A stretch of 64,000 nucleotides of DNA, taken from NCBI GenBank assembly GCA_030390025.1, contig CM059432.1, positions 33,544,001 through 33,608,000 on the forward strand. Direction: 5' to 3'. The DNA comes from Squalus acanthias. Taxonomy: Eukaryota. This document shows, piece after piece, positions 3,131-50,554 of this stretch. A model generated the notes under the pieces. That model was given only the letters and a program-made list of their open reading frames with translations, was not told the DNA's origin and ran no database searches. The translations under genes were made by a program, and so were the position numbers. Position 1 is the first letter of the stretch; each line of letters opens with the position of its first letter.

Positions 3131-4880
3131 TGAGTGGGAAAAATTGGTGATCGCCAACAAAGCAGTTGGTGTCACCGCCAACTGCCATTAACGGCTGCCC
3201 GAAATGGCCGCATCGCTAACCGACCTAAGTTGGTGTGGGGGACATGGAGGTAGGTGGCGCAGCGCTAACCTTAGGTACAACGCCATCCTGGTGGCATTGC
3301 ACGAGGGATCCGGGACCAATTTGCAGTCCTGGTGCGGCGTTGCTGCTTCCCCGAGTGTCTGTGTGCGAGGCTGTGAAGCTCGCAATGCATTGTGGACAGT
3401 GAGGAGCTCTGAAATTTAAAGGGGCCACGCGCATTGAAGCAAGACAAAATAAAATGCACTGATTCAATACATTTTTCAGCCCTTTCTGTCTTTTTACAAA
3501 TATTCAATATTTAAAAGAAGTTCCAAATGTCATTATTCAGTTCTTAAAGTTGAATTACCTTCCTAAACTGAAATGGGAAAACTGCCTCAGCACTAACACA
3601 AATGGCTCAGCAAGCCAGGGAAGGGGTACCCATTGTCTCGCACGCAGCACTCCAGCTTTGTACAGGGGGTCAACACTACAAGACTGGCCCTCTACCCACA
3701 GGGGCCAGGAGGCCTTCCAGAAAGAACAATGTGGGAGTACATTACCAAGGCCGTCACTGCCAGCATTGTCGCCCCCATGACCTGGCTCCAGTGCTCCATG
3801 AAACTTCATGAACTCAGACCACTGGTCAAGGTCAGTGAATGCATCTTCAAAAGCTGTCATCTACCAACTGCACCACGAGCCTCACACACTGCTCAATGCA
3901 GGAGCCCCCAATCACTCACCTACCAACAATCTGCACCAATGACGAGGCACATCTACCATTCCTAGCATCACCTCACCCCCTTGGAGGAGACGGTGCAGGC
4001 CATTCCTGGCAGGGGCATGGCTGAGCCCTTGGCCAGCGGCGGGGCTGAAAGGATACAAGATGCGGGCATCTTCATACGTTATCCCCCTTCTGGCATGCAC
4101 CTCTAGGTTTCCCACCCTCCCGTCAGCACAACTCCACCCTTGTATCGCCCTCATTTCACACACCCAAGAAATGCAACCTGCCCAGCCAGTGGGTCAACAA
4201 GAAGAGGTCACCTGCCCAGCCAGTGGGACCGCAGGCAGATGATTCCATCCCGGATATCCCGGCCACAAAGGGTCTGTCTGGGATGCATCCTTTTGTCTGA
4301 TTCCTCCTCTTCGGTTTCCTCCTCTTCTGCGTCTTCCTCTTCTGTGTCTTCCTCTTCTGCGTCTTCCTCTTCTCTCTGCAAGCGAATGCTGTAAATGTGA
4401 AGACTGGCCCTCTACCCACAAATATCAGTTGGTCAGGCAGCATGTCGACCTGCGGCGTGAACTCCACGGATGTAGCGTGACCTGCTGAGTATTCGCAGCA
4501 TGTTCTGTCTTCTCAAAGGCGTTCACTTACCATCCGAGCTCTTGCAAACCTCTAGCAGCACTCCCAAAACACTTAAAAAACCTTTCACATATATTGCAGC
4601 AAGCCACCACTTCAATAAAATCCAACAAACCAAGGCCAAACCCTTCCATAAAAACTTACCTGATTGATGTGTGTGTCCCTTTAACAGCTGCAGATATCGC
4701 CCCTGTCAGCGTCTGTCAGCCTGCTTGCATGCCAGGTTAACCTTCTTTTTTACAGGGCGTGCTGGTTATCAGTAGCGCAAAGGGGCCCACGAATATGGCG
4801 GCCGCCGCGGGGACTGCCTCCATTTTTGCGAGAATCGCTGGCACTAATAGGTGGCAGTAAGTATATGAATTTCTCACCCA
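3131..4880 (-). mobile_element. Decayed Harbinger element, divergent family
   Basis: Myb exon-1 relic on + 3602-3830 (MAQQARE...WEYITKAVTASIVAPMTWLQCSMKLHELRPLVK|gt); exon-2-like HLTPLEETV at ~3970; acidic transposase-like C-terminus on - at ~4225-4380 (EEEDAEEEDTEEE...RDIRDGII); degenerate TIR-like ends. Confidence 0.72.
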
Positions 4881-21068: not shown

Positions 21069-21909
21069 GGGGCTAAATATTCGGCCATTTTTTCAGGCGC
21101 TAACCGGTTTACTAAGTCCCTAATTTGATGGGCAGGAATCACGTGCACATTTCCAGCTGGAAGTGCAGTACCAGCCATACAGCTGAAGGATAAAAATAGG
21201 TGATCAGGGCCCGCGCCTGAAACAGGTGCTAGACCCATTGCAAATCAGGGGCCTAACGCCTGTTTGAGGCCCACACCCCACACTGCAAGCTGGGTTTGCT
21301 CTGAGGCAGCCGAGGCTCGTGCTGGCTTCAGTGAGTAAAACCAGACCGTGGGACCACCTCATACCAACAAGGTAAATTTTAAAGTGCTCCTCCCAACCCT
21401 ACATTTAAAGAAGGTAGGCTGCCGTCACTCCTGCCTTCCCCCCACCACCACTTACCGCCTGCCCCCGCCCCCCCCCCCCCCACCCGACCGCTGCCACTCC
21501 TCCCTGACCCAGCCTCCTGTCCCGCTTCACATTCTCCTATCTTACTCCTGGTCTCCTAACTCCTGACCCCTGGCCTCCGATCCCCATCGTCGTCCTCCTA
21601 TCTCCCCCTGCCCCCGGCCCCTGATCTTCCGACCCCTGTCCTCCGATCCCCCTCCCCACACCCCCACATCCTTCGGATCTCTTGGTAGGCCCAGTCTCCG
21701 ATCTCCCAACCCCCAGCCTTCATTTACATGAGGGCCTCGGTGACTTGAGCAACCGCCCGATCTTTGTCACCTCTTCACCGGTGGGTTCTTCTCGCCTCGC
21801 TGGCTCAATTGAAAAGAGGCCTGAGGCCCAATATTGAGAGCACCTCGGGCCTCACTATTCAGGCGCTGGGAATGCACCAATCATCCTCCTGCGCCTGAAT
21901 TTCGACCCC
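21069..21909. mobile_element. Harbinger-like MITE
   Basis: Ends GGGGCTAAATATTC / revcomp GGGGTCGAAATTC; GC-rich with a C-rich interior. Confidence 0.65.
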
Positions 21910-22319: not shown

Positions 22320-25150
22320 TAAGTCACCTGGTCCAGATGGAATGCATCTTAGGTTGCTGAAAGAAGCAAAGGTAGAAATAGTAGAGGCATTGGTCACAAT
22401 GTTTCAATCCTCATTGGGTACAGGAGGAGTGCCGGAGGACTCGGGGTTGCTAATGTTATACCGCTGTTCAAGAAAGAGGAGATGGATAAACCTGGAAACT
22501 ACAGGCCAGTCAGCCTAACATTGGTGGTGGGAAAGTTACTGGAAACCATTATCATGGACAAAATAAACTTTCATTTGGAAAAGCATGGGTTAATCAAGGA
22601 CAGCCAGCATGGATTTGTTAAAGGCAAATTGTGTCTGGCTAACTTGATTGAATTCTTTGATGAGGTAACAGAGAAGGTTGATCAAGGAAGTACAGTAGAT
22701 GTTGTATATATGGACTTTCGGAAAGCATTCGCAAAGTGCCACACAGAAGGCTTATTAAGAAGATAGAAGCCCATGAAATTAAGGGGAAAGTGGCGGTATG
22801 GATACAAAATTGGCTCAGTGACGGGAAGCAAATGGTGGTGGTGGTGGATGTTTTTCAGACTGGGAGGTGGTTTGCAGTGGTGTTCCCCAAGGGTCAGTTT
22901 TGGGTCAATTACTCTTTGCAATTTTTATAAACGACCTAGACTCGGGTTAAGGGAGCAGCATTATAAGGTTTGCAGATGATACGAAACTTGGTAAAGTAGT
23001 AGATAGTGATGAGGATAGTTATAGGCTTCAGGATGACATAGACAGGATGGTGAAATGGGCAGAAGCATGGCAGATGGAGTTCAATGTGGAGAAGTGTGAA
23101 GTGATGCACTTCGGGAGGACTAATGTGGAAAGGCAGTATACTATAAATGGCACGATTTTGAAGTGTAGATGAGCAGAGAGATCTTGGTGTCCATATACAC
23201 AAATCCTTAAAGGTGGCAGGGCAAGTTGATAAGGTGGTTAAAAAGCACATGGGTTACTTGGGTTTATAAATATAGGATTGGAATATAAAAGCAAAGAGAT
23301 CATGCTAGAACTTTATAAATCACTGGTTAGGCCTCAGCTGGAGTACTGTGGACAATTCAGGGCACCAGACTTCATGAAAGTTGTAAAGGCCTTAGAAAGG
23401 GTACAGAGGAGGTTTACCAAGATGTTACCAGGGATGAGGGACTTCAGTTATGAGGAGCGGTTGGAAAAGTTAGGACTGTTCTCCTTGGAACAGAGAAGGT
23501 TAAGAGGTGGCCTAATAGAGGTTTTCAAGATGATGAGAGGTTTTAATAGAGTAGATAGAGAAAAATTATTTCCTCTGGCGAGTGGGTCAATAACTAGAAG
23601 TATGGGTTAGAAAATCATTATAGCCCAGCAATGGGCGGTATCTTTAGAAAAGTTTGAGAATTAGCGCCAGGTGCTAATGCTTTAGACAGCATGCAAAATT
23701 AATTCTCACTGCTCAAAGAAATGATTGGGGCACTAAATCAAGTCTTAAAGGCCTAGCTCAGTGGCGTTACACTCAAAGGGTGGACCAATATCAGGTGCAG
23801 TCTAATCTCAACTCACATTGCCACAGGCTTTTCCCAGTACTTAATAGGGAGGTTCATTGACACTGCAGCACCTCATTCTCAGCATTGCTGGCTGTGCAGC
23901 TGCCTCAGCAAGGAGAAGCACATCAAGGAGAAGGAGCCGGAGGACTGAAGCAGGTGTGCTCATGGCAGATCCACCTCAGTCGGGTGGTCAGGGTGATTGA
24001 ATGCTTCAACAAAAGCTACATACCACCATCTGTACCACAAGCTTCACACACTGCCCAAAGCACCAGACCCCCAGCACTCACCCACCAACAATCTCTACCT
24101 ACCAACACTCACACCCACATCTCACGCCTTGCACACAATTACAGCTACTCAGCTATGGCAGGCACAAGGTACATTAGTTATTAGAATGAATGTGATATGA
24201 GTGATATGTTTATGCATAAATTTATTAATGGAGTTTGCAAAATTTTGTGGTCTCTCTCATTTCACCTTTGCACCCAGGAGGATGCTGTGATATGGCATGA
24301 CACAGGGATGGTATGATGGGCATGTGGTGAGCAAAGGGGTCTGGGGTTTAAGTCATCCTGGTGTGAGCCTGGAGATCTGTTTGGAGGAGGTTGCAGAGTT
24401 CTGTAACCACCACCTTGGTGATGCGGAGCCGTCTAATACACTGCTCCTCGCTTAATTGAAGGTAGGACAGGTGCTGTCGGAATACCCTCGGAGGGTAAGG
24501 CCTCCTGGTGAGAACCCTGATGTCCCTCCTCATCCCTCTGTGCGCATGTTCTCGTATTAATGCCGATGCCTTTAAATAACGTCACTGGAGCCGGCTTCCG
24601 CTGGCTGTGCACCTGCTCTCCCTGTCGCTGTCTGGTCAAGGTGGAAAGGTAAGCGCCGAAAACCAATTTTGAAGATCAGCCGTCAACACGCTCGATGACG
24701 TCACGATCTGCCTGGCGTTGACATCCCCGGCAGTACCTCGTACCGGCGGCGCAACGGGGGTCTGAATATGTCGCTGGATTTGCCTCGCCCTGGCGCTACT
24801 GCATCAGCGCCCTGTTAGCACCAGCTGCTGGCACTAACGGGAGGCGCTAACCAACTGAATTTTCCCCAGATTCAAAATCATTGGCAAAAGATCTAGAGGG
24901 GAAATGAGGAGAAATTTTTTCACTCAGAGGATTGTTGTGATCTGGAACGTTCTACCTGAAAAGGTGGTGGAAGCTGATTCCATAAATAATTTTAAAAGGG
25001 AGTTGGACAGGTGCTTGAGGATGAGGAACTTACAGGGTTAAGGACAAAAAGCGGGGATGTAGGACTAAGCACGACAGCTCTTCAAAGAGCCAGCACAGGC
25101 ATGACGGGCCGAATGGCCTCCTTCTGTTCTGTAAGTTTCTCTGATTCTGT
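22320..25150 (+). mobile_element. CR1 LINE 3' portion, decayed, split by the Harbinger derivative
   Basis: KSPGPDG, NYRPVSL, QHGF, DFRKAF, FADD, YKSLVRPQLEY; tail GGCCGAATGGCCTCCTTCTG...GATTCTGTG. Confidence 0.9.
23604..24867 (-). mobile_element. Internally deleted Harbinger derivative inserted in a CR1
   Basis: Right end revcomp GGGGAAAATTCAGTTGGTTAGCGCCTCCCGTTAG resembles the intact left end. ATTAGCGCCAGGTGCTAAT at ~23660. Transposase N-terminal relic 24348..24533 (RRPYPPRVFRQHLSYLQLSEEQCIRRLR). CR1 sequence resumes at 24868. Confidence 0.88.
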
Positions 25151-26409: not shown

Positions 26410-27190
26410 TTACGTGGAGAGACTAGTGAAGCTGAGATTGTTCTCCTTAGAGCAGAGAAGCTTAAGAGGAGGTTTAATAGAGGTGTTCAAAATTTTGATA
26501 GAGTAAATATCATGAATGGTTTTGATAAAGTAAATAAAGAGAAACTGTTTCCAGTGGCAGAAGGGAACACAGATTTAAGGTGATTGGCAAAAGAACCAGA
26601 GGTGACATGAGGAAATTTTTTTTTACACAGCGGGTTGTTATGATCTGAAATGCACGGCCTGAAAGGATGGTGGAAGCAGATTCAATAGTAACTTTCAAAA
26701 GAGAATTGGTAAATACTTGAAGGGGAAAAAAAATTACAGGGCTAGGAGAAAGAGTGGGGGGGGTGGGGTTGAGATTAATTGGATAGCTCTACCAAAGAGC
26801 AGACACAGGCACGGTGGGCTGAATGACCTCCTTCAGTTCTGTATCATTCTATGATTCTATGAAATAAGAAAAACCTGTTTCCACTGGCAGGAGGATTGGT
26901 AATCAAAGGACAAAGATTTAAGATAATTGGCAAAAGAACCAGAGGGAAGATGAGAATTTTTTTTTTTTTACACAGCGAGTTGTTACGATCTGGAATACAC
27001 GGCCTGAAAGGATGGTGGAAGCAGATTCAATAGTAACTTTCAAAAGGGAATTGGATATATAATTGAAAAGGAAAAATTTACAGGGCTGGGGGGAAAGAGC
27101 AGAGGGGTGGCACCAACTGATTAGCCCTATCAAAGAGCTGGCACAGGCATGATGGGCTGAATGGCCTCCTTCTGTGCTGTAAGATTCTAT
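26410..27190 (+). mobile_element. Two tandem CR1 3' fragments
   Basis: Two successive ORF2 ends with ATTCTATG tails at ~26860 and ~27190. Confidence 0.82.
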
Positions 27191-27701
27191 GGGGTAAAAA
27201 TTCACTTGGTTGCGCCTCCCGTTAGCGCCTTAAGAGGGCGCTAATGGGGCGTTAAGCCGCTAACGCCCGGGCGCAGCGATGTTTGCGCCGCTCGAGAACT
27301 TAACTTGAGATTGTGCGGCGGCGCTAAAACTTACCGCTGCGACCACCTGCGCGCGCAGATTATGACGTCATTCCATGGTGCAACGCCCTTGGGGCGCCCC
27401 GGAGCGGAAATTGAGTGGCGCCCCCTGCCTTACCGCCTGGCGCTTCCAACGACCGGAAGACTGGAACGCTATCAATCGGTGTGGGGCTGGGGGGGGCGCT
27501 ATTTAAAGGGGGCCTCTTCCTGTCTTTTTCTGTGGTCGACATTTATGCACCACTCGTTCTGAGAGAGAGAGAGAGATTCGGAGAGAGAGAGAGAGAGACT
27601 TCTACATTGACTCAACGCTTTGTGAGGTAGTTTTGCCTATTCATCCTAACTTTGTTGCTACTTTAGTTGCTGTACCTCATTACTTTTCTGGCAAAGAGAA
27701 T

Positions 27702-28862
27702 ATGGGAGCTGCACTGATTGGGGGCGTCGTCCTGCTCCAGCTGAATCGGAGGATACAGAGACACAGACAGAGAGTGGCAATGATGGCCAGACGGAGGAGG
27801 GCCATCAGGCGCATGTACAGGAGAGCTTACCCTCCCAGGGTATATCGTGAACAGCTCTCCTACATCCATATGTCCGAGGAGCTGTGTTTGCGAAGGCTGC
27901 GATTCAGCAAGGAGGTGGTCACTGAGCTCTGCCACCTGCTGCAGCCAGATCTGCAGCCTCAGCTGAGGTCCAGGACGTCTCTGTCGGTGGCAGTGAAGGT
28001 CACAGTGGCTTTGAACTTCTACGCCACTGGCTCATTCCAAGCTGCTGTTGGGGACCTCGCCAATATCTCCCAGTTTGCGGTGCATCGCTGCATCCGGCAG
28101 GTCACCAATGCCCTCTTCAGAAGGAGACGAGACTTCATCTCTTTCCCTATGACCCCAGACAAGCAGCGTGACCGTGCTCTGAGCTTTGCGAGGGTAGCGG
28201 GCTTCCCCATGGTGCAGGGCGCCATTGACTGCACGCATGTGGCTTTGCGTGCTCCGCGAGAGAATGCAGAGGAATTCAGGAACAGAAAGGGGTTCCATTC
28301 CTTGAATGTCCAGTTGGTCTGTGACCACAGACAGGTGATACTCGCTGTCAATGCCCACTATCCGGGCAGCTGCCACGATGCTTTCATCCTGCGCCAGACT
28401 ACTGTGGCAGAAGTTTTTGAGGCACCGCATCAGCCAGTTGGTTGGCTTCTGGGGGACAAGGGGTACGCATTGAGCACCTGGCTGATGACACCGCTCCGTA
28501 CGCCAAACACCCCTGCTGAGCTGCGGTACAATGAAAGCCATCAAGCAAAAAGGAACATTATTGAGCGCACAATCGGCGTGCTGAAACAATGGTTCCGCTG
28601 TCTGGACCATTCCGGAGGAGCCCTGCAGTACTCGCCTGAGCAAGTTTCGAACTTCGTAGTCGTGTGCTGCATGTTGCACAACATGGCAATCCTCAGGACC
28701 CAGCCAATGCCACCAGGCCTTGTAGCACCACCAGAGGAGGAGGAGGAAGAGGAGGAAGAGGACGAGGATGATGATCATCAGCAGCACCAAGGCAGGAGGG
28801 CGGCCCACAATGGTCAAACTGCAAGGGCCGTCCGTCAACGACTAATAGCAAGCCGCTTCTAG
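27702..28862 (+). CDS. Harbinger (HARBI1-family, DDE_Tnp_4) transposase, 386 aa from first ATG
   Basis: Open ORF with motifs GAIDCTH, NRKGFHSLNVQ, PGSCHDAFI, LLGDKGY, IIERTIGVLK, CCMLHN; N-terminal HTH-like region (ALNFYATGSFQ...ISQFAVHRCI); acidic C-terminal tract. Confidence 0.93.
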   Translation: MGAALIGGVVLLQLNRRIQRHRQRVAMMARRRRAIRRMYRRAYPPRVYREQLSYIHMSEELCLRRLRFSKEVVTELCHLLQPDLQPQLRSRTSLSVAVKVTVALNFYATGSFQAAVGDLANISQFAVHRCIRQVTNALFRRRRDFISFPMTPDKQRDRALSFARVAGFPMVQGAIDCTHVALRAPRENAEEFRNRKGFHSLNVQLVCDHRQVILAVNAHYPGSCHDAFILRQTTVAEVFEAPHQPVGWLLGDKGYALSTWLMTPLRTPNTPAELRYNESHQAKRNIIERTIGVLKQWFRCLDHSGGALQYSPEQVSNFVVVCCMLHNMAILRTQPMPPGLVAPPEEEEEEEEEDEDDDHQQHQGRRAAHNGQTARAVRQRLIASRF

Positions 28863-29156
28863 GGCCCCTGCCATTGCTACAAACATTAATCAACCCAGCA
28901 CGCAACCCCTAAGCCGGCCAAGGCACCAATAATTCCAACCACCAGCCATGTATATTTTGAATACAGAAACTTATTTATTTTACAAACTCTGTGTGTGTCA
29001 ATTCCTCATGACAAACTCATAGAAATAAACACAAAAAAACAGTCAATAACATAACTGGTTCTCACAACCTGGAGATAATGTCCAAAACACTAAACAAAAG
29101 TTGGACCATGAACCTCGGCCTTTAATAAAAAAATGACCAGCATTTTGGCACACCTC
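28863..29156. terminator. Shared AT-rich convergent 3' region with candidate polyA signals
   Basis: AATAAA on + at ~29024 and ~29124; TTTATT (AATAAA on -) at ~28974; lies between the two stop codons. Confidence 0.5.
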
Positions 29157-30136
29157 CTACTTTTTGCCCTTCGAGGGTGATCTCCTTCCCTTGCGCACTT
29201 CCCCCCTTCTAACCCTACTGCTCCTCCGTAATGGGACCTCAGTGGCTGCAGCAAGGCTGGTGGAAGGCTGCTGCTCGTCAGACCCTGACACTGCAGATGC
29301 CCCTGAAGGACGGCCTCGACCACTTCTGGGCCTGGAGGGCCCGGCTGCAGACTGCACCAACTCTGCATGGGCGGCAGCAGTCTGTCCTACAGGCGGTGGC
29401 AAGTGCAGTGGAGAAGTGACAGTGTTGGCAGCAGGAATGCTGTCATCGTGCGAGAGGACAGCAACTCCCTGCTCGCCCGACACACTGGCACTCCCACGGG
29501 GCAGCACTTCAGCATCCGGAGCAATCTGCCGGAGAACAGATTGCTGGCCTGCTGCGGCGCGATGACAGCCCCGGGGACATGTACACGAACCATCGAGGTT
29601 GGCAGCAGTCTGTGCTCGCGTGGCCTCCATCTGAGTCTGTATGAGAGCAGTCAGAGGTGGGATCACGGCAGCCAGTGACTGAATTGCAGCACTAAGCGTT
29701 AGTGTGGCATCCGCCTGTGCTACAGCGAAGTGCTCCACACTCCTTGCCAGTGACTCAATGCATTCGGGCACCCTTCCCACTGCACCCATGAGCTCAGTGT
29801 GCATGCCCACCGCCTGGGTGTTCATTTCTGCAATCAGCCGCTCCTCCTCTGCGTCCATTGCAGTAGGAGTGTCTGGCATACTCTCCCTCTGGGGAGAAGG
29901 CCCCCGTTCTTCCCTACCCCCCCCATGGCGTTGCTGCAGCCCGCTGGGTCCTGGAGCTTCACCATCATCAGCCCCTTCCCCCCTGCTCCCCTCCGGGGAA
30001 AGCGTGTTCCCAGTGTGGGCATGGGCTTCCTCGGGAGAGGGTGGCACTGATGCTCTGGCTTCCTCTTCCTCCTCAGCTGCAGCATCACTCCCAGTGGCAG
30101 CTTTAGGGCCCGTCTCCTCAGCTGGTGAATCACCAT
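29157..30136 (-). CDS. Harbinger Myb/SANT-like protein, exon 3 (980 nt, ends TAG)
   Basis: Acceptor CTCCCTGCTTTCAG; the phase-1 join runs in frame into ORF 29157..30047; acidic stretch, helical middle, basic C-terminus RRSSRVRRGEVRKGRRSPSKGKK. Confidence 0.82.
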
Positions 30137-30295
30137 CTGAAAGCAGGGAGGTACAAGAGTGGCTTTAGCGTGAGGACAGGGTGGCAGTAAGGGAGGAATA
30201 AGTGCAGCGAGTTAGCAAGTTGGATTGAAAGTGTCAAAGGCTGGTGTTGTGAGGGACAAGTGGAAGGACAGAGGACAAAAAGGTGATGACCTTAC

Positions 30296-30458
30296 CATTG
30301 CTGTCCACAACGGGGTCGGCGTCTCCAGTGGCGACGGGACCGATCACCCGGCTTGCCACAATCCTGTGGACGTGCTCCTCCAGATCGCTGAGGGGTTGCA
30401 GCTGAGGCCGCCCTCCACCTGTCCGTTGCTGCTGTCTCCGATTGTGCGCCAGCTTGGC
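30296..30458 (-). CDS. Harbinger Myb/SANT-like protein, exon 2 (163 nt)
   Basis: Acceptor TTTTTCTTACAG; AKLAHNRRQQQRTGGGRPQLQPLSDLEE carries the TGGG..L..LEE motif typical of NAIF1/MSANTD-like proteins; GTAAG donor, phase 1. Confidence 0.88.
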
Positions 30459-30487
30459 CTGTAAGAAAAAGGACAGCATCTGAGTAA

Positions 30488-30647
30488 ATATACAGCCATG
30501 GTCTTGCCTGATGTGCCTCCCATATGTGAATAGCCCTTACAATATACAGCCATGGTCTTGCCTGATGTGCCTCCCATAGGTGAATAACCTTACAATATAC
30601 AGCCATGGTCTTGCCTGATGTGCCTCCCATAGGTGAATAGCCCTTAC
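30488..30647. repeat. ~3 x 55-bp tandem repeat in Myb gene intron 1
   Basis: ATATACAGCCATGGTCTTGCCTGATGTGCCTCC...GTGAATAGCCCTTAC occurs three times. Confidence 0.9.
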
Positions 30648-30795
30648 TGTATGCAAAGTGTGGAATGTGTGTGTGTGTTTGATGAAAGGGCCATAGGTGT
30701 TGGATGAGTGTTGTGCATTGGGGTTTTAAGACCCTCTGGCCATATAGTGAGGTTGAGATGGAGGGATGGAGAGGTATTGAGAAAAAGCCACTCAC

Positions 30796-31032
30796 CCTGA
30801 CGACCCGAGTGAGGTCGTTGTACTTTTTGCGGCATTGAGTATGGGTCCTGGGCACCATGCTCCTGGAGGAGACGCTCTGAGCCACCTCCCTCCACACTCT
30901 TCTGAACTCGCGTGGCAAAGTCCTCCTGCCACTCTCAGGGAACAGCATACATCGTCTGCGCTCCACTGCGCCAACCAGAGCATCCAAGGCCCGCTCGGTG
31001 AAGCGATGAGCGCGTTCTCTCACCCTCTCCAT
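30796..31032 (-). CDS. Harbinger Myb/SANT-like DNA-binding protein, exon 1 (79 codons)
   Basis: ATG at 31032; MERVRERAHRFTERALDALVGAVERRRCMLF...VWREVAQSVSS...PRTHTQCRKKYNDLTRVVR is a trihelix Myb/SANT pattern; GTGAG donor at 30795. Confidence 0.88.
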
Positions 31033-31404
31033 GCTTGGCAGCAAAATGGATTCACAGGTCTCTCCAGGCTGAGATTCAAGGCTGCAATGAGCAGGGTGTG
31101 GCTGGGGAGCAAGTGGCCCCCCCCCCCCCCGCTTTAAGAAGTGTCCGGCGCCAGTGTGTCTGTGTTCCCTCGCTAACTGGCAGCAGCTGCGCTGCGCTCG
31201 CGCGCTGAGTTAGCGCCTCACTCCTTGGCCTTTGCGCCTTAAGACAGGTGTGCAGCGCCTGCTTTAGCGCTCCACTCACCTCCCAGGGCGGTAAAAGTGA
31301 AGTTTCCTGTCAGTGCCGATAATTAGCGCCAGGCGCTAATATTTGCGTCCGGACGATATTTGCGCCCCAAATGGGGCGCGACCTAATTTCTACCCCTATG
31401 ATTT

Positions 31405-31650
31405 CAAAAAAATGAAGGGAGAGATTAGAAGATTTATTTTTTATGCAGTGTGTTGTTATGACATGGAATGCCTGACCAGAAATAGAGGTGGAAGCATCCA
31501 TAATAGGTTTTAAAGGGAAATGGATTAATAATTGAGAAAGGAAAATCAAAAAGCGTATGGGAAAAGGGCAAGGGAAGGAGACAAATGGATATTTCTTTCA
31601 GAGAGTTGTCCCTGGCATGATGTGCTGAATGGGATGTTCCATAACTCTGT
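31405..31650 (+). mobile_element. CR1 3' fragment, older
   Basis: Degenerate match to the other CR1 ends. Confidence 0.65.
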
Positions 31651-36352: not shown

Positions 36353-36699
36353 ATTCTTTCTTTCTTCTCAGCCAACTCTTTATAGATAACTGAAGAACGT
36401 ACACAGCTACTGTAGACCTTCCCAAGCCTCAGTAGGCTATGGGAAACCAGCTACAGGTTATTGGTATGTCTGTCCAGTATCTGGTGATCTATTCGGATGA
36501 ATGCACTGTATGAGATATCTTCACTCCCTGATAGTCTGCTGGCAAAGCTGGTAGGTGCCTGGCAGCCTTGTGATAGAGAAACATTTGCCAAGTCCCTGAT
36601 CGATCAGGTGGGAAGAGGCAATAGCATCTGATAACCCGGTGGTTACACTGCGCCCATTCCACATGGCACAAAATGTTGAACAATGGCTTTTTGATTTCA

Positions 36700-37239
36700 T
36701 CAGTGGTACAGGGTAGGGTAATAAGGTCAGTGGTACGGGGCAGGGTAATAAGGTCAGTGGTACGGGGTAGGGTAATAAGGTCAGTGGTACGGGGCAGGGT
36801 AATAAGGTCAGTGGTACGGGGTAGGGTAATAAGGTCAGTGGTACGGGGCAGGGTAATAAGGTCAGTGGTACGGGGCAGGGTAATAAGGTCAGTGGTACGG
36901 GGCAGGGTAATAAGGTCAGTGGTACGGGGCAGGGTAATAAGGTCAGTGGTGCGGGGCAGGGTAATAAGGTCAGTGGTACGGGGCAGGGTAATAAGGTCAG
37001 TGGTACGGGGCAGGGTAATAAGGTCAGTGGTACGGGGCAGGGTAATAAGGTCAGTGGTACGGGGCAGGGTAATAAGGTCAGTGGTACGGGGCAGGGTAAT
37101 AAGGTCAGTGGTACGGGGCAGGGTAATAAGGTCAGTGGTACGGGGCAGGGTAATAAGGTCAGTGGTACGGGGCAGGGTAATAAGGTCAGTGGTACGGGGC
37201 AGGGTAATAAGGTCAGTGGTACGGGGCAGGGTAATAAGG
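36700..37239. repeat. 27-bp minisatellite, ~20 near-perfect copies
   Basis: Unit TCAGTGGTACGGGGCAGGGTAATAAGG. Confidence 0.97.
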
Positions 37240-38389
37240 AGGCAGACCCAACTGAATGCTGAAGTAGAAAAACACAAAACTGAGCCGGGAATGAAGCAAT
37301 CAAGTGGTTGATGTTACTGGGAAGTTGGCAAGTTACCTTGTTTTTTTCAGATCGTCAAAGCCGGAGATAACTATCTCTCCTCCCCCCCACCGCCCCTCCC
37401 AGCTCCCCAGGCTAGTTGGCTAGTGGAATATACCAGCCCCGTGCATAAATCATCTCTTGGCTGCAGTTAGTTTTCCTTTTGGGGCCCAAGTAGCAGCATC
37501 TGCTTTAAAGAAAAATGCGCTCTGTACAAAATAAAAATATTACAGGTGTTATTTTTGGAGAAAATCTTTTATTTCAAATGTGATTTAAATTTGAAAATAA
37601 AGTAGGACTTGTTGTGAGTCCTCGCCTCCCGCCTCTGTGCAGTTGATCCCATTCAGCTAGCCTAATGTCAAAGGTTAGCCCGAATTCCAGCGGGTAGCTG
37701 AGTATAGAGATGTGGGCCTTGAAATTCTATCTTTTCAGGGTTCAATATGGCAGTGCATGTGCCCGTCATATGCCAGAAGTGCGCCGCCCGCCATATTAAC
37801 TCCTCTGTAGACGTCCAGGGCGGGCATGAAACAGGCATTAGTCTTCCTTGCAAAAGTTCTCCCGGTGACCTAACCAATATTTATCCCCTAACCAACATCA
37901 CTATTACACATATTGCTCGGCTATTTCAGAGGGCAGTTAAGAGTCAACCATGTTGGTGTGGGACTGGAGTCACACATAGGCCAGACTGGGATTGGATGAA
38001 TCAAAACTTGCTGTAACTTAAGGATGGCAGGTTTAACTTCCCTAAAGGACATTAGTGAGCCACCTGGGGTTTTGTGATAGCTTCATGGTCTTTCTGATAG
38101 ATTGCCAGTTTTTTAAAAAACTGAATTCAAATTTTCAAACTGTAATGGTGGGATTTGAACTCTCAGTGGGATTACTAGTCCAGTAACAAAACCACTACAC
38201 CACCATACCCGTACTTAATTGGAGATGAGACAGTTGTAGAGATCGATAGAAGTGTCAATGCCATCCCAGATTTAGGGAAGTTTGAGAGGGCACGTATGAT
38301 GGAGTTGGGAGAATGTTTTTCCAGGAGTGTTAAGAATTTTGGCAAAGGGGGTCATAGGAGAAAGGAGGTGATGAAGTGATTGGATGCCT

Positions 38390-41841: not shown

Positions 41842-42025
41842 CTGCCAGTGGCAGTAAAGGTGACAACTGCCTTGAACTTTATTGCCTTGGGTTATTTCCA
41901 GGGTACCAGGGTGGACATCAGCAACAACAATCGATCTGCAATGCATCGCTGCATAAAATAGGTGACTGATGCCTTGCTAGAGCAAACAAGTACATCACTT
42001 TCTCTATGGACACCAGGGAGCAAAA
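41842..42025 (+). pseudogene. Harbinger transposase fragment
   Basis: Translates LPVAVKVTTALNFIALGYFQGTRVDISNNNRSAMHRCIK*VTDAL, matching LSVAVKVTVALNFYATGSFQAAVGDLANISQFAVHRCIRQVTNAL of the intact copy; contains a stop and a frameshift. Confidence 0.85.
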
Positions 42026-42999
42026 GTCCCAACTGATTCCCACAAGTGCAGGGGGTAATTTATTCCACCCATATTACCTTTCATATACACAAATAGACAC
42101 AGACAGACAGATATGTAAATATACACACAATTACAGATACACAGTTACAATGCATAGACAGTCATATAAATACACAAATCATAGATACTTGTACGAAGAC
42201 ACACACATGCTTCTTTACTGCTCCAACATGTTGTCATGTGCATGTCCACTCTATGGTTGTTGTGGGGATGGAACAGGTTGGTTGATGAAGGGGTGGAACA
42301 GGTTGGTTGTGCGGGCGGCACTGGTTGGTTGTTGTAGAGGTAGAATAGGCAGGTTGTTAGGGTGGCAAAGGTTGTTTGGTGTGGGAGTGGCAAAGTTTGA
42401 TTGGTGTGGGAAAAGGAAAGAAAGTCATAACGGTGCAGTACAGGGTGCCATTCTAGGGTTGGGACTAAGGATCATTACTGGGACAGTTAAAGGGAGCTTT
42501 AGTCTGCATCTAGCTGTGCTACACCAGACCTGGACATGCTTGATGCTGACACTAGCACCAGGTATTTCCTCGGAGAGTTCTCCCGATTGGCTGCTATAAT
42601 TTCAGCAGAAGATCGGTGTAAATCCAGTTTATCTGGGGTTCCTGACGCTCTTCCGCCGAAGTTGATCAGAGACTCCCCAAAGAAATTCCCAGTGTCAGTA
42701 TCTGAAATGGGAAAGAATTCCATCCTTTAACACAAATATCCCACACTTTAACTATAAATCTGGATTTATGGGGCCCTGCAACAAATAGAAGGTATCTCCA
42801 CATGATGGGTCACAGTAATGGCACAGAGAAACGGGACCATATAGATCAGGAGGTCCCAGGTTTGATCCAATCTCAGCCAAGGCAGCAGTAGGATCTTTAC
42901 AATCAGCTTCAGTGAACGATGACCCTACGCCAGAGCAGGGAAAATCAGCCAGAGCTCCAGATCCTAATCTAGTAACTCCTGCTGGACAGCTATCCACAA

Positions 43000-47240: not shown

Positions 47241-49912
47241 GTACATAAGAACATAAGAACATAAGAAATAGGAGCAGGAGTAGGCCAATCGGCCCCTCGA
47301 GCCTGCTCCGCCATTCAATAAGATCATGGCTGATCTGATCCTAACCGCCAATCTACTATCTATCACAGAACCATCTCCTGCATCTAACAGAATTGCACAC
47401 ACGAAATAGGAGCAGAATCAGGCTACACGGTCCCTGGGCCCGCTCCACTACCCACAGGGCCATGACCGATCCGAACCTAGACTCATGTCCAAATTCCTGC
47501 CCGCTCCCCGTAACCCTTAATGCCCTTTACTTCTAGGAAACTGTCTATTTCTGTTTTAAATTTAATTAATGTTGTAGCTTCTACAGCTTTTTGTGGCAGC
47601 ATATTCCATGGACCTACCACCCTCTGAGTGAAGTAGTTCCTCCTCATCTCAGTTTTGAAAGAGCAGCCCCTTATTCTAAGACTATGTCCCCTAGTTCTCG
47701 TCTCACCCGTCATCGGGAACATCCTCCCCGCATCCACCCGATCCAACCCCTTCACAATCTTATATGTTTCAATAAGATCGCCTCTCATTCTTCTGAACTC
47801 CAATGAGTAGAGTCCCAATCTACCCAACCTCTCCTCATATGACCACCCCCTCATCCCCGGGATTAACCGAGTGAACCTTTTTTGCACTGCCTCGAGAGCA
47901 AGGATGTCTTTCCTTAAGTAAGGACACCAAAACTGTATGCAGTATTCCAGGTGCGGTCTCACCAATACCTTGTACAACTGAAGCAATACCTCCCTATTTT
48001 TATATTCTATCCCCCTAGCAATGAAAGCCAACATTCCATTTGCCTTCTTAATCACTTGCTGCACCTGCATACTAACCTTTTGAGTTTCGTGCACCAGGAC
48101 CCCCAGATCCCTTTGCACTTCAGTACTCTCCAGTTTCTTGCCATTAAGATAATAAATTGCTCTAGGATTTTTCCTGCCAAAGTGCATCACCTCACACTTT
48201 CCAGTGTTGTATTCCATCTGCCAAATCTCTGCCCACTTACTTAGCCTGTCTATGTCCCCTTGCAGGTTTTTTATGTCCTCCTCACTCACTACTTTCCCTC
48301 CCATCTTTGTATCATCTGCAAATTTTGATATGTTACACTTGGTCCCTTCCTCCAAATCGTTAATATAGATTGTGAAGAGTTGGGGACCCAGCACTGACCC
48401 CTGTGGAACACCACTAGTTACTGATTGCCAGTCTGAGAATGAACCATTTATCCCAACTCTTTGCTTTCTGTTAGATAGCCAATCCTCTATCCATGCCAGA
48501 ATATTACCCCCAATCCCGTGATTTTTTACCTTAAGCAATAATCTTTTGTGTGGCACCTTGTCAAATGCCTTTTGGAAGTCTAAATACACTACGTCCACCG
48601 GTTCCCCTTTATCCACTCTAAATGTTACTTCCTCAAAGAACTCCAGCAAATTTGTCAAACATGACTTCCCCTTCGTAAAACCATGCTGACTTTGTCCTAT
48701 TAAATTATGATTATCCAAATGTCCTGTTACTGTTTCCTTAATAATGGACTCCAAAATTTTACCTACCACAGATGTTAGGCTAACCGGTCTATAGTTACCA
48801 GCCTTCTGTCTACTGCCCTTTTTAAATAAGGGTGTTACATTAGCAGTTTTCCAGTCTGCCGGGACCTTAGCGGAATCCAGGGAGTTTTGAAAAATTATTA
48901 CCAATGCATCTACAATCCCTACCGCCACTTCCTTCAAGACTCTAGGATGTAAGCCATCAGGTCCAGGTGATTTATCCGCCTTGAGTCCCATTATTTTACC
49001 GAGTACCACTTCCTTAGTGATTTTGATCGTGTTTAGCTCCTCTCCCCCTATAGCCCCCTGTTTGTCCAGTGTTGGGATATTCTTAGTGTCCTCTACTGTA
49101 AAGACTGATACAAAATATTCATTCAGTGTTTTTGCCATCTCCATATTTCCCACCATTAATTTCCCGGTCTCATCCTCTAAGGGACCAACATTTACTTTAG
49201 CCACCCTTTTTCTTTTTATATAACTATAAAAACTCTTACTATCTGTTTTTATATTTTTTGCTAATTTACTTTCATAATCTATCTTCCCTTTCTTAATCAA
49301 TCTTTTTGTTATTTTTTGCTGCCTTTTAAAGTTTTCCCAATCCTCTGTCCTCCCACTAGATTTCGCTACCTTATATGCCCTTGTTTTTAGTCGAATACTA
49401 TCCTTAATTTCTTTACTTAGCCACGGATGACTGTCCTTTCTTTTACACCCTTTTCTTTTCAGTGGAATATATTTTTTTTGGAAGTTGTAAAATAACTCCT
49501 TGAATGTACACCACTGATCATGTGTCGTCTTACCCTTTAATCTATTTTCCCAATCCACTCTACTCAATTCCGCTCGCATACCTTCATAGTCTCCTTTATT
49601 CAAGCTTAGCACGCTTGTTTGAGATCCAACCTTCTCACCCTCTAATTGAATATGGAATTCAACCATGTTATGGTCACTCATTCCAAGGGGATCCTTTACT
49701 AGGACATTTTTAATTAATCCTGTCTCGTTACACAGGACCAGATCTAAGGTTGCTTGCCCCCTGGTCGGTTCAGTTACATACTGCTCAAGAAACCCATCCC
49801 TAATACACTCAATGAACTCATCCTCAAGGCAGCCCTGCCCCATTTGATTTGTCCAATTAATATGATAGTTAAAATCCCCCATAATTATAGATGTTCCCTT
49901 ATTACATGCCTC
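47241..49912 (-). mobile_element. Young 5'-truncated CR1 LINE (family A)
   Basis: Open ORF2, 3' UTR and (TCTTATGT)n tail at 47241-47265; inserted into another LINE. Confidence 0.95.
47483..49882 (-). CDS. CR1 ORF2, N-truncated: C-terminal part of APE endonuclease + reverse transcriptase
   Basis: 799 codons without a stop; GDFN, LDL, SDH (endonuclease); [37 protein letters not shown] (RT). The frame stays open upstream of the ATG to the truncation point. Confidence 0.92.
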   Translation of the reverse strand: MGDFNYHINWTNQMGQGCLEDEFIECIRDGFLEQYVTEPTRGQATLDLVLCNETGLIKNVLVKDPLGMSDHNMVEFHIQLEGEKVGSQTSVLSLNKGDYEGMRAELSRVDWENRLKGKTTHDQWCTFKELFYNFQKKYIPLKRKGCKRKDSHPWLSKEIKDSIRLKTRAYKVAKSSGRTEDWENFKRQQKITKRLIKKGKIDYESKLAKNIKTDSKSFYSYIKRKRVAKVNVGPLEDETGKLMVGNMEMAKTLNEYFVSVFTVEDTKNIPTLDKQGAIGGEELNTIKITKEVVLGKIMGLKADKSPGPDGLHPRVLKEVAVGIVDALVIIFQNSLDSAKVPADWKTANVTPLFKKGSRQKAGNYRPVSLTSVVGKILESIIKETVTGHLDNHNLIGQSQHGFTKGKSCLTNLLEFFEEVTFRVDKGEPVDVVYLDFQKAFDKVPHKRLLLKVKNHGIGGNILAWIEDWLSNRKQRVGINGSFSDWQSVTSGVPQGSVLGPQLFTIYINDLEEGTKCNISKFADDTKMGGKVVSEEDIKNLQGDIDRLSKWAEIWQMEYNTGKCEVMHFGRKNPRAIYYLNGKKLESTEVQRDLGVLVHETQKVSMQVQQVIKKANGMLAFIARGIEYKNREVLLQLYKVLVRPHLEYCIQFWCPYLRKDILALEAVQKRFTRLIPGMRGWSYEERLGRLGLYSLEFRRMRGDLIETYKIVKGLDRVDAGRMFPMTGETRTRGHSLRIRGCSFKTEMRRNYFTQRVVGPWNMLPQKAVEATTLIKFKTEIDSFLEVKGIKGYGERAGIWT

Positions 49913-50554
49913 AACTGCAGTCTGTGTGGTGAATGTACTCCCACAGTGCTGTTAGGGAGGGAATTCCAGGATTTTGACCCAGTGACGATGAAGGAACAGC
50001 GATATATTTCCAAGTCATGATGGTGTGTGACTTGGAGAGGAACTTGGAGGTGGTGGTGTTCTCATGCGCCTGTTGCCCTTGTCCTTCTAGGTGGTAGAGG
50101 TCGTGGGTTTGGGAGGTGCTGCTGAAGAAGCCTTGGTGAGTTGTTGCATCTTGTAGATGGTACATACTGCAACCACAGTGGGCCAGTGGTGGAGGAAGCC
50201 AGGAGCTGAGTCACTCGCTGCAGAATACGCAGCCCATGACCTGCTCTTGTAGCCACATTATTTATGTGGCTGGTCCAGTTAAGTTTCTGGTCAATGGTGA
50301 CCCCCAGGATGTTGATTGTGGGGGAATTCGACAATGATAATGCCACTGAATATCAAGAGGAGGTGGTTAGACTTTCTCTTGTTGGAGATGGTCATTGCCT
50401 GGCACTTGTGTGGTGTGAATGTTACTAGCCACTTCTCAGCCCAAGCCTGAATGTTGTCCAGGTCTTGCTGCATGCGGGCGTGGACTGCTTCATTATCTGA
50501 GGAATTACGAATGGAACTGAACACTGTGAAATCAGCGGACATCACCACTTCTAA

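Follow-up and report, generated by a model that had tools for sequence, protein, structure and literature searches.

Three exons on the minus strand, between positions 29157 and 31032 of a 64,000-nucleotide stretch of Squalus acanthias DNA (hereafter the window), very probably make up a single gene, the Myb-like (ORF1-type) accessory gene carried by a full-length transposon of PIF/Harbinger type that belongs to a young, multi-copy family. An earlier note on this DNA had proposed a spliced Myb/SANT (trihelix) gene as the partner of the neighboring transposase, and Pfam matches, profile comparisons and the ends of the element all bear this out. The two-gene design is a textbook one, the Myb gene is of the expected type, and knowledge of the mechanism is unchanged.

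Predicted structure of the spliced Myb gene

The gene is read from the minus strand throughout. Exon 1 (30796-31032, 237 nt) encodes aa 1-79 and contains the Myb/SANT trihelix domain; exon 2 (30296-30458, 163 nt) encodes aa 80-133, comprising the end of trihelix helix 3, a TGGG motif at aa 92-95, and then a further helix; and exon 3 (29157-30136, 980 nt) encodes aa 134-459 and the stop codon. Both introns are of the GT-AG type. Intron 1 (30459-30795, 337 nt) lies in phase 0, contains three 53-54-bp repeats (30487-30655) and keeps the frame of exon 1 open, and intron 2 (30137-30295, 159 nt) lies in phase 1 and has a length that is a multiple of three, yet its retention runs into stop codons. 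The joined exons total 1380 nt and encode 459 aa plus a stop, with no internal stops. When sites within the gene span are ranked by a simple consensus score devised for this analysis, both acceptors tie for first place among 152 AG sites, and of 87 GT sites donor 1 ranks first and donor 2 ties for second with three others. An open frame as long as exon 3 arose in only two of 20,000 first-order Markov simulations, and a run of 112 open codons, which is what the frame of exon 1 has across intron 1, was equalled in 464 of 20,000.

Support for the splicing pattern comes from related proteins. The unspliced 246-aa frame that begins with the Myb domain was searched against a database of 1.84 billion representatives and yielded 53 proteins at E≤0.001; with such a query they were chosen by exon 1 alone. 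Nonetheless, on the spliced model 40 of the 53 alignments extend past aa 100, as against three on the unspliced frame, and seven reach aa 340 or further. The best full-length homologue is a sawshark protein, P0003, which aligns over aa 11-456 with 37% identity. Thirty of the 53 were looked up; 25 are shark, ray or skate entries and the remainder come from an eel, a paddlefish, a frog, an unnamed cluster and a cluster with mussel members. Most of the homologues are computational gene models. Two other sawshark proteins, P0001 and P0002, have two or three tandem Myb modules like that of the Myb partner.

A profile built from 17 chosen homologues, with the window sequence excluded, matches exon 1 up to profile position 107, and its match to exon 2 (E 1e-13) starts directly after this, at position 108. 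This set was picked after the alignments had been seen, and the profile was repeated with all 53 homologues, again without the window. The larger profile matches the three exons in order and in their predicted frames (exon 1, E 8e-37; exon 2, 6e-13; exon 3, 5e-20), with exon 3 scoring 58 bits and none of 200 shuffled sequences exceeding 5.6 bits; no match to the introns or to other frames was seen beyond a single trace of negative score. The coordinates, splice sites, phases and protein length put forward in the earlier note are exact, the profile falls on the exons and on neither intron, and the three-exon gene model is confirmed at the level of sequence. Word-based protein searches at E≤0.001 returned nothing for exon 3 (8000 candidates scored) or for exon 1 (102 candidates), which reflects the limits of their sensitivity since the unfiltered search did find homologues. 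Masked BLASTP with exon 2 alone likewise recovered none of the 53 homologues, while the profile search detected this exon.

Comparison of exon 1 with Pfam, suggested earlier as a check, gives matches to both Myb_DNA-bind_5 (E 2.3e-10) and Myb_DNA-bind_4 (E 2.3e-6). In a structure model of the homologue P0003, trihelix helix 3 spans the position of intron 1, and it is this splice that would complete the trihelix domain. The gene had also been described as hidden from the list of open reading frames. It is not fully so: an unspliced ATG frame of 246 aa (31032-30292, within a 305-codon frame) starts with the Myb domain, which Pfam detects there (E 1.6e-9) and which is visible in the list because intron 1 has no stop in the frame of exon 1, and a 335-codon open frame contains exon 3.

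The surrounding element and its copies

The element occupies positions 27191-31396 (4,206 bp) and contains two convergent genes arranged tail to tail. Its 12-bp terminal inverted repeats lie at 27191-27202 on the plus strand and 31385-31396 on the minus strand, match at 11 of 12 bases and start with GGGG; immediately outside them the triplet TAT is present as a target-site duplication at 27188-27190 and 31397-31399. The left subterminal region (27203-27520) is CpG-rich, with an observed/expected CpG ratio of 1.1 against 0.33-0.38 in the flanks. It contains the sequence GGCGCTAA at 27222, 27237 and 27320, and the right subterminal region (31097-31384) contains it at 31210, 31323 and 31332. Each of these regions thus has three copies of the motif, a candidate binding site for the Myb protein, while the interior of the element has none, and three of its four further occurrences in the window sit in related remnants.

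The second gene, at 27702-28862 on the plus strand, is a single exon encoding a 386-aa Harbinger DDE transposase (Pfam DDE_Tnp_4, E 1.3e-37). The acidic residues D176, D226, D252 and E288 are present, within motifs at aa 173-179, 222-226, 249-255 and 287-292. There are 374 homologues at E≤1e-20, the best of them from sharks and rays at 55-65% identity, and a PDB sequence search with the transposase returned nothing under E 0.3. Residues 283 and 297 differ from 34 of 39 and 36 of 39 aligned homologues, respectively, and the sequencing runs carry the common letter at both; given these departures from conserved letters, this transposase copy may be impaired and the element decaying. Between the two genes (28863-29156) there are putative poly(A) signals, AATAAA at 29024 and 29124 on the plus strand and AATAAA at 28979 and ATTAAA at 29126 on the minus strand, and these could make the 3′ ends of the convergent genes overlap.

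The structure is that of a PHIS element, with a DDE_Tnp_4/HARBI1-type transposase, a Myb/SANT second gene, 12-bp ends and a 3-bp duplication. Excerpts of PMC4482050 give short terminal inverted repeats starting with G or A as a criterion for PHIS elements, and a mean element length of about 4,124 bp, compared with 4,206 bp here. The TAT duplication of this single copy fits none of the consensuses TWA (narrow PIF/Harbinger), CWG (NuwaI), ANT (Pangu) or C|TNA|G (NuwaII) that the same excerpts (Han et al. 2015) list for the groups, and we leave the subgroup unnamed because one copy cannot give a family consensus. The repeat that received the element ends in an octamer of the ATTCTATG type, and it is this octamer that the insertion splits (27171-27190 and 31397-31416), with flanks reading ATTC-[TAT]-GATT. 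The repeat itself, which we take to be CR1, recurs at 26766-26853 and 25056-25143.

The stretch was found in 14 sequencing runs under seven organism codes, none of them listed as an RNA run. The analysis used three of these, X12, X1 and X3 (between them with the organism labels F, A and B), which gave 167, 1459 and 2541 contigs, respectively, at 90-100% identity. These numbers, together with an internally deleted relative at about 23605-24867 of the window, show a dispersed multi-copy family. The contig depth near the element ends is far above that of the interior, and in X1 there is a contig in which 27650 is joined directly to 31123, both as expected of internally deleted derivatives. We do not claim horizontal transfer, as slow divergence of sharks would give the same sharing across the coded organisms.

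None of the contig joints listed for X12, X1 and X3 falls at a predicted splice junction. Contigs pass the intron borders unspliced, also in X1 and X3, where they cross the exon-1 donor and, in X3, the exon-3 acceptor too; X1 and X3 were guessed to be RNA, but they look genomic because their contigs also cover the element ends and flanks. The RNA run X15 had no aligned reads even with the flanking repeats included and is uninformative on splicing. Among the six indel entries for X12, X1 and X3, the only one in an exon is an in-frame 3-nt deletion at 29917 in exon 3, seen in all three runs; 1-nt indels are confined to intron 1 (such as an insertion at 30587 in X3) or lie upstream of both start codons. 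This pattern fits the spliced gene model. Of the differences listed (40 of 184), ten fall in the Myb exons, eight of them non-synonymous, two synonymous and none creating a stop, and five of the eight non-synonymous changes lie in the linker; in the transposase, 11 of the 18 differences among the same 40 are synonymous. Constraint is visible on the transposase, and at such depth there is no sign of it on the Myb gene.

Other Harbinger-related sequences are present in the window, with at least four such pieces besides the main element within the 64 kb. The relative at about 23605-24867 is older, internally deleted and in the opposite orientation, with a left end 76% alike, and is inserted in LINE-like sequence. 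Two parts of the genes remain in it, a piece from the 5′ part of the transposase (24531-24364, 73%) and a segment that runs from the last part of Myb exon 1 across the donor into intron 1 (23973-24166, 67%); the donor is kept, and frame-breaking small indels occur throughout intron 1. A short non-coding MITE-like element at about 21072-21909 has inverted ends starting with GGGG and GGCGC-rich subterminal motifs, a broken Harbinger transposase remnant lies at 41842-42081 (42% over 89 aa), and there is a weak Myb remnant at 3597-3962 (E 6e-4). The window also contains an 822-codon frame at 47483-49951 on the minus strand with endonuclease and reverse-transcriptase domains, a piece of a LINE-type ORF2, and a homogeneous tandem array of a 27-bp unit at 36565-37374.

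Exon 3, its helix and the related proteins

Exon 3 encodes an acidic linker (aa 134-228, 23% D/E), an amphipathic helix of about 110 residues, a low-complexity tail and a basic end, with no globular domain. Taken with the trihelix and the TGGG motif, this is the layout that had been read from the sequence at the outset, and Pfam, AlphaFold2 and residue composition agree with it. The basic C-terminus, made up of the last 29 residues (aa 431-459; 29160-29246, minus strand), is 41% K/R and is NLS-like by composition only; a basic cluster is present in the last 40 aa of 20 of the 53 homologues. The tail also contains the motif RGRP at aa 407-410, which is presumably AT-hook-like, but as it is found in the last third of only four of the 53 homologues we do not claim it as a feature.

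The helix corresponds to aa 229-337 (29526-29852, minus strand) and is predicted to be coiled-coil-like. AlphaFold2 places helices at aa 229-318 and 320-337 (residues 95-184 and 186-203 of exon 3), with pLDDT above 90 over approximately aa 235-284 and low values elsewhere (mean 60, pTM 0.28), and the model of P0003 has the same two long helices. Hydrophobic residues recur in aa 229-337 with a period of 3.5-3.6 residues, a regularity matched by three of 2000 shuffled sequences. A helix profile built from five homologues with the window excluded gives the window protein 46 bits and also picks up six homologues beyond the five, with scores of 24-154 bits, so that 11 of the 53 homologues carry the helix; 120 transposases used as controls score no higher than 4.4 bits. 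All 11 come from sharks, rays or skates, and the profile gives no score to the homologues from the eel, paddlefish, frog and mussel.

The earlier statement that the long C-terminal part has no recognized domain holds, with Pfam, PDB sequence searches, Foldseek and the ESM Atlas naming none. Exon 3 has no Pfam and no PDB match, and the PDB search with P0003 gave nothing under E 0.3. Foldseek returned no matches with the exon-3 model, a lone long helix being a poor query. In the ESM Atlas, exon 3 retrieved one unnamed chordate cluster (0.91) and Myb_DNA-bind_5 clusters (0.77-0.78), which serve as leads only, and the helix alone gave no usable match. When residues 88-215 of exon 3 were modelled together with aa 25-335 of the transposase, without alignments, the complex scored 0.00 and 0.01, which weighs neither way. 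No paper describing this helix, or how shark Harbinger elements are built, was found in the literature covered, which included few subscription papers and neither Repbase nor supplements. As judged from these comparisons, the helix is the sole feature of the Myb partner still without a description, and it is specific to sharks and rays.

A tree of the Myb proteins, from which P0045 was left out as a partial repeat and to which five cluster members were added, contains two conserved clades. The first has 12 members joined by short branches (support 100/97) and spans sharks, rays and a skate (P0007, P0010, P0011, P0015, P0024 and their kin); five of the 11 helix-bearing homologues belong to it, and it is probably a domesticated host gene that keeps the long helix. 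The second has seven members from several shark and ray orders (support 100/99; P0016, P0021, P0030, P0026, P0037 and P0050 among them) and is probably a domesticated gene as well. The Myb protein of the window falls outside both, in a poorly supported region of the tree where its nearest neighbor is P0003. Some sets of transposase-like proteins also differ little between distantly related sharks and rays (P0087/P0088/P0128, P0103/P0105, P0069/P0070 and P0076/P0077), and these, some with altered catalytic motifs, are candidate domesticated transposases.

Two readings of the locus other than a spliced transposon gene have to be considered, and both are very improbable. If the product were the unspliced 246-aa protein ending at 30292, with exon 3 a separate or non-coding frame, the 112 open codons of intron 1 would be accounted for, as would the contigs that cross the donor unspliced in two possibly-RNA runs. 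However, the read-through part of this frame has no homologue and no profile match, a protein so made would lose both the end of helix 3 and the TGGG motif, and intron 1 tolerates indels, one in run X3 and many in the relative within the window. Alternatively, the two genes could be a domesticated, fixed host pair like HARBI1/NAIF1 or MSANTD and no longer mobile. The intact frames of both genes, the short-branch clades of related Myb proteins across sharks and rays and the presence of the stretch in runs under other organism labels are what such a pair would show, but it would hardly keep its inverted ends, target-site duplication and subterminal motifs intact, occur as numerous variant contigs and as derivatives with deletions, or sit in the tail of a repeat as an insertion, and the window protein belongs to neither conserved clade.

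The role of the helix is less readily assigned. It is quite possibly a protein-contact module that pairs the transposon ends through coiled-coil self-association, holds the transposase, or both, though we place this somewhat short of even likelihood. A doubtful but serious alternative is that it serves only for self-association or for binding a host chromatin protein, contact with the transposase being made by exon 2 through the TGGG motif and the helix that follows. Exon 2 is conserved well beyond sharks while the helix is confined to shark and ray homologues, even though the transposases are alike across vertebrates, and the probable host gene retains the helix; against this, lineage-specific co-evolution with the N-terminus of the transposase would yield the same distribution. 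That only sharks and rays have the helix, and that a probable host gene retains it, would suit self-association or the binding of a host partner just as well. More specific, and rather unlikely, is the combined proposal that the helix is an undescribed conserved domain of a lineage-specific shark/ray Myb partner that oligomerizes, holds the transposase and was kept when one member was domesticated as a host gene now shared by sharks, skates and rays.

Comparison with known Harbinger systems

The closest characterized system is Harbinger3_DR of zebrafish, which, as far as it is described in the sources at hand, also has a DDE transposase, a Myb/SANT/trihelix gene, short inverted ends and a 3-bp duplication. 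Its Myb-bound motif of 9 bp is repeated in both subterminal regions, a position taken here by the candidate GGCGCTAA sites; the Squalus element differs in this motif and in its TAT duplication. The Myb partner is also longer, with 459 aa compared with the 300-400 aa given as typical in extracts of PMC9710019, and it has the long helix, which among the homologues only those of sharks and rays share. PMC8437027 gave no further detail about introns. In the rice Ping/Pong system, a plant system with a TTA duplication, both ORF1 and TPase are needed, the Myb-like domain is needed for excision, and short derivatives are mobilized in trans, according to passages of PMC2836001. That the Harbinger Myb-like protein as a whole binds the transposase and acts in nuclear import is stated in parts of PMC9392472, PMC9710019 and PMC2836001, citing Sinzelle 2008, so that binding and import of the transposase by the Myb partner would be an expected property and no surprise.

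If the element works as its zebrafish and rice counterparts do, its spliced mRNA would be translated into the 459-aa protein, whose trihelix (exon 1 and the start of exon 2) would bind GGCGCTAA-type subterminal sites. The Myb protein would also bind the transposase and bring it into the nucleus, with import probably signalled by the basic tail, and onto the transposon ends. The transposase would then cut and paste the element, and internally deleted copies would be moved as well.

Four database proteins, P0003 and P0004 from Pristiophorus and P0008 and P0014 from Heptranchias, have the same architecture over nearly their full length at 28-37% identity, and are labelled as host genes, either ‘uncharacterized’ or ‘myb-related transcription factor, partner of profilin-like’. 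Entries named ‘putative nuclease HARBI1’, up to 65% identical to the transposase, likewise carry host-gene annotation. For the family of the element itself, the database entries found go no higher than 65% for the transposase and 37% over the full length of the Myb protein. The vertebrate genes NAIF1 and MSANTD1-4 share a Harbinger-derived trihelix Myb-like domain and a multi-exon structure with the gene described here, but excerpts of PMC9392472 describe them as single-copy, syntenic and without transposon ends, whereas this gene has intact ends and is multi-copy. The Myb partner is not a domesticated gene of the NAIF1/MSANTD type. No named NAIF1 or MSANTD1-3 was present among the 30 of 53 homologues looked up, and one member of the mussel cluster is MSANTD4-like.

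Part of a published survey reports no Harbinger in the elephant shark and urges checks of other species (PMC9179366), and an excerpt of PMC8455134 already includes the Harbinger superfamily among those of the whale shark. The element described here supplies a complete two-gene Harbinger element for the cartilaginous fishes, and with it a trio that can be tested, namely the Myb domain, the GGCGCTAA motif and the transposase. Many shark and ray gene models named ‘HARBI1’ or ‘MYPOP-like’ are probably transposon genes, and the helical segment merits a family model of its own. If the helix does prove to be a conserved domain retained on domestication, then this young family, near-identical across several organism labels, would offer the matching mobile pair – transposase and Myb partner, with their binding motif – for decoding the role of the domesticated gene.
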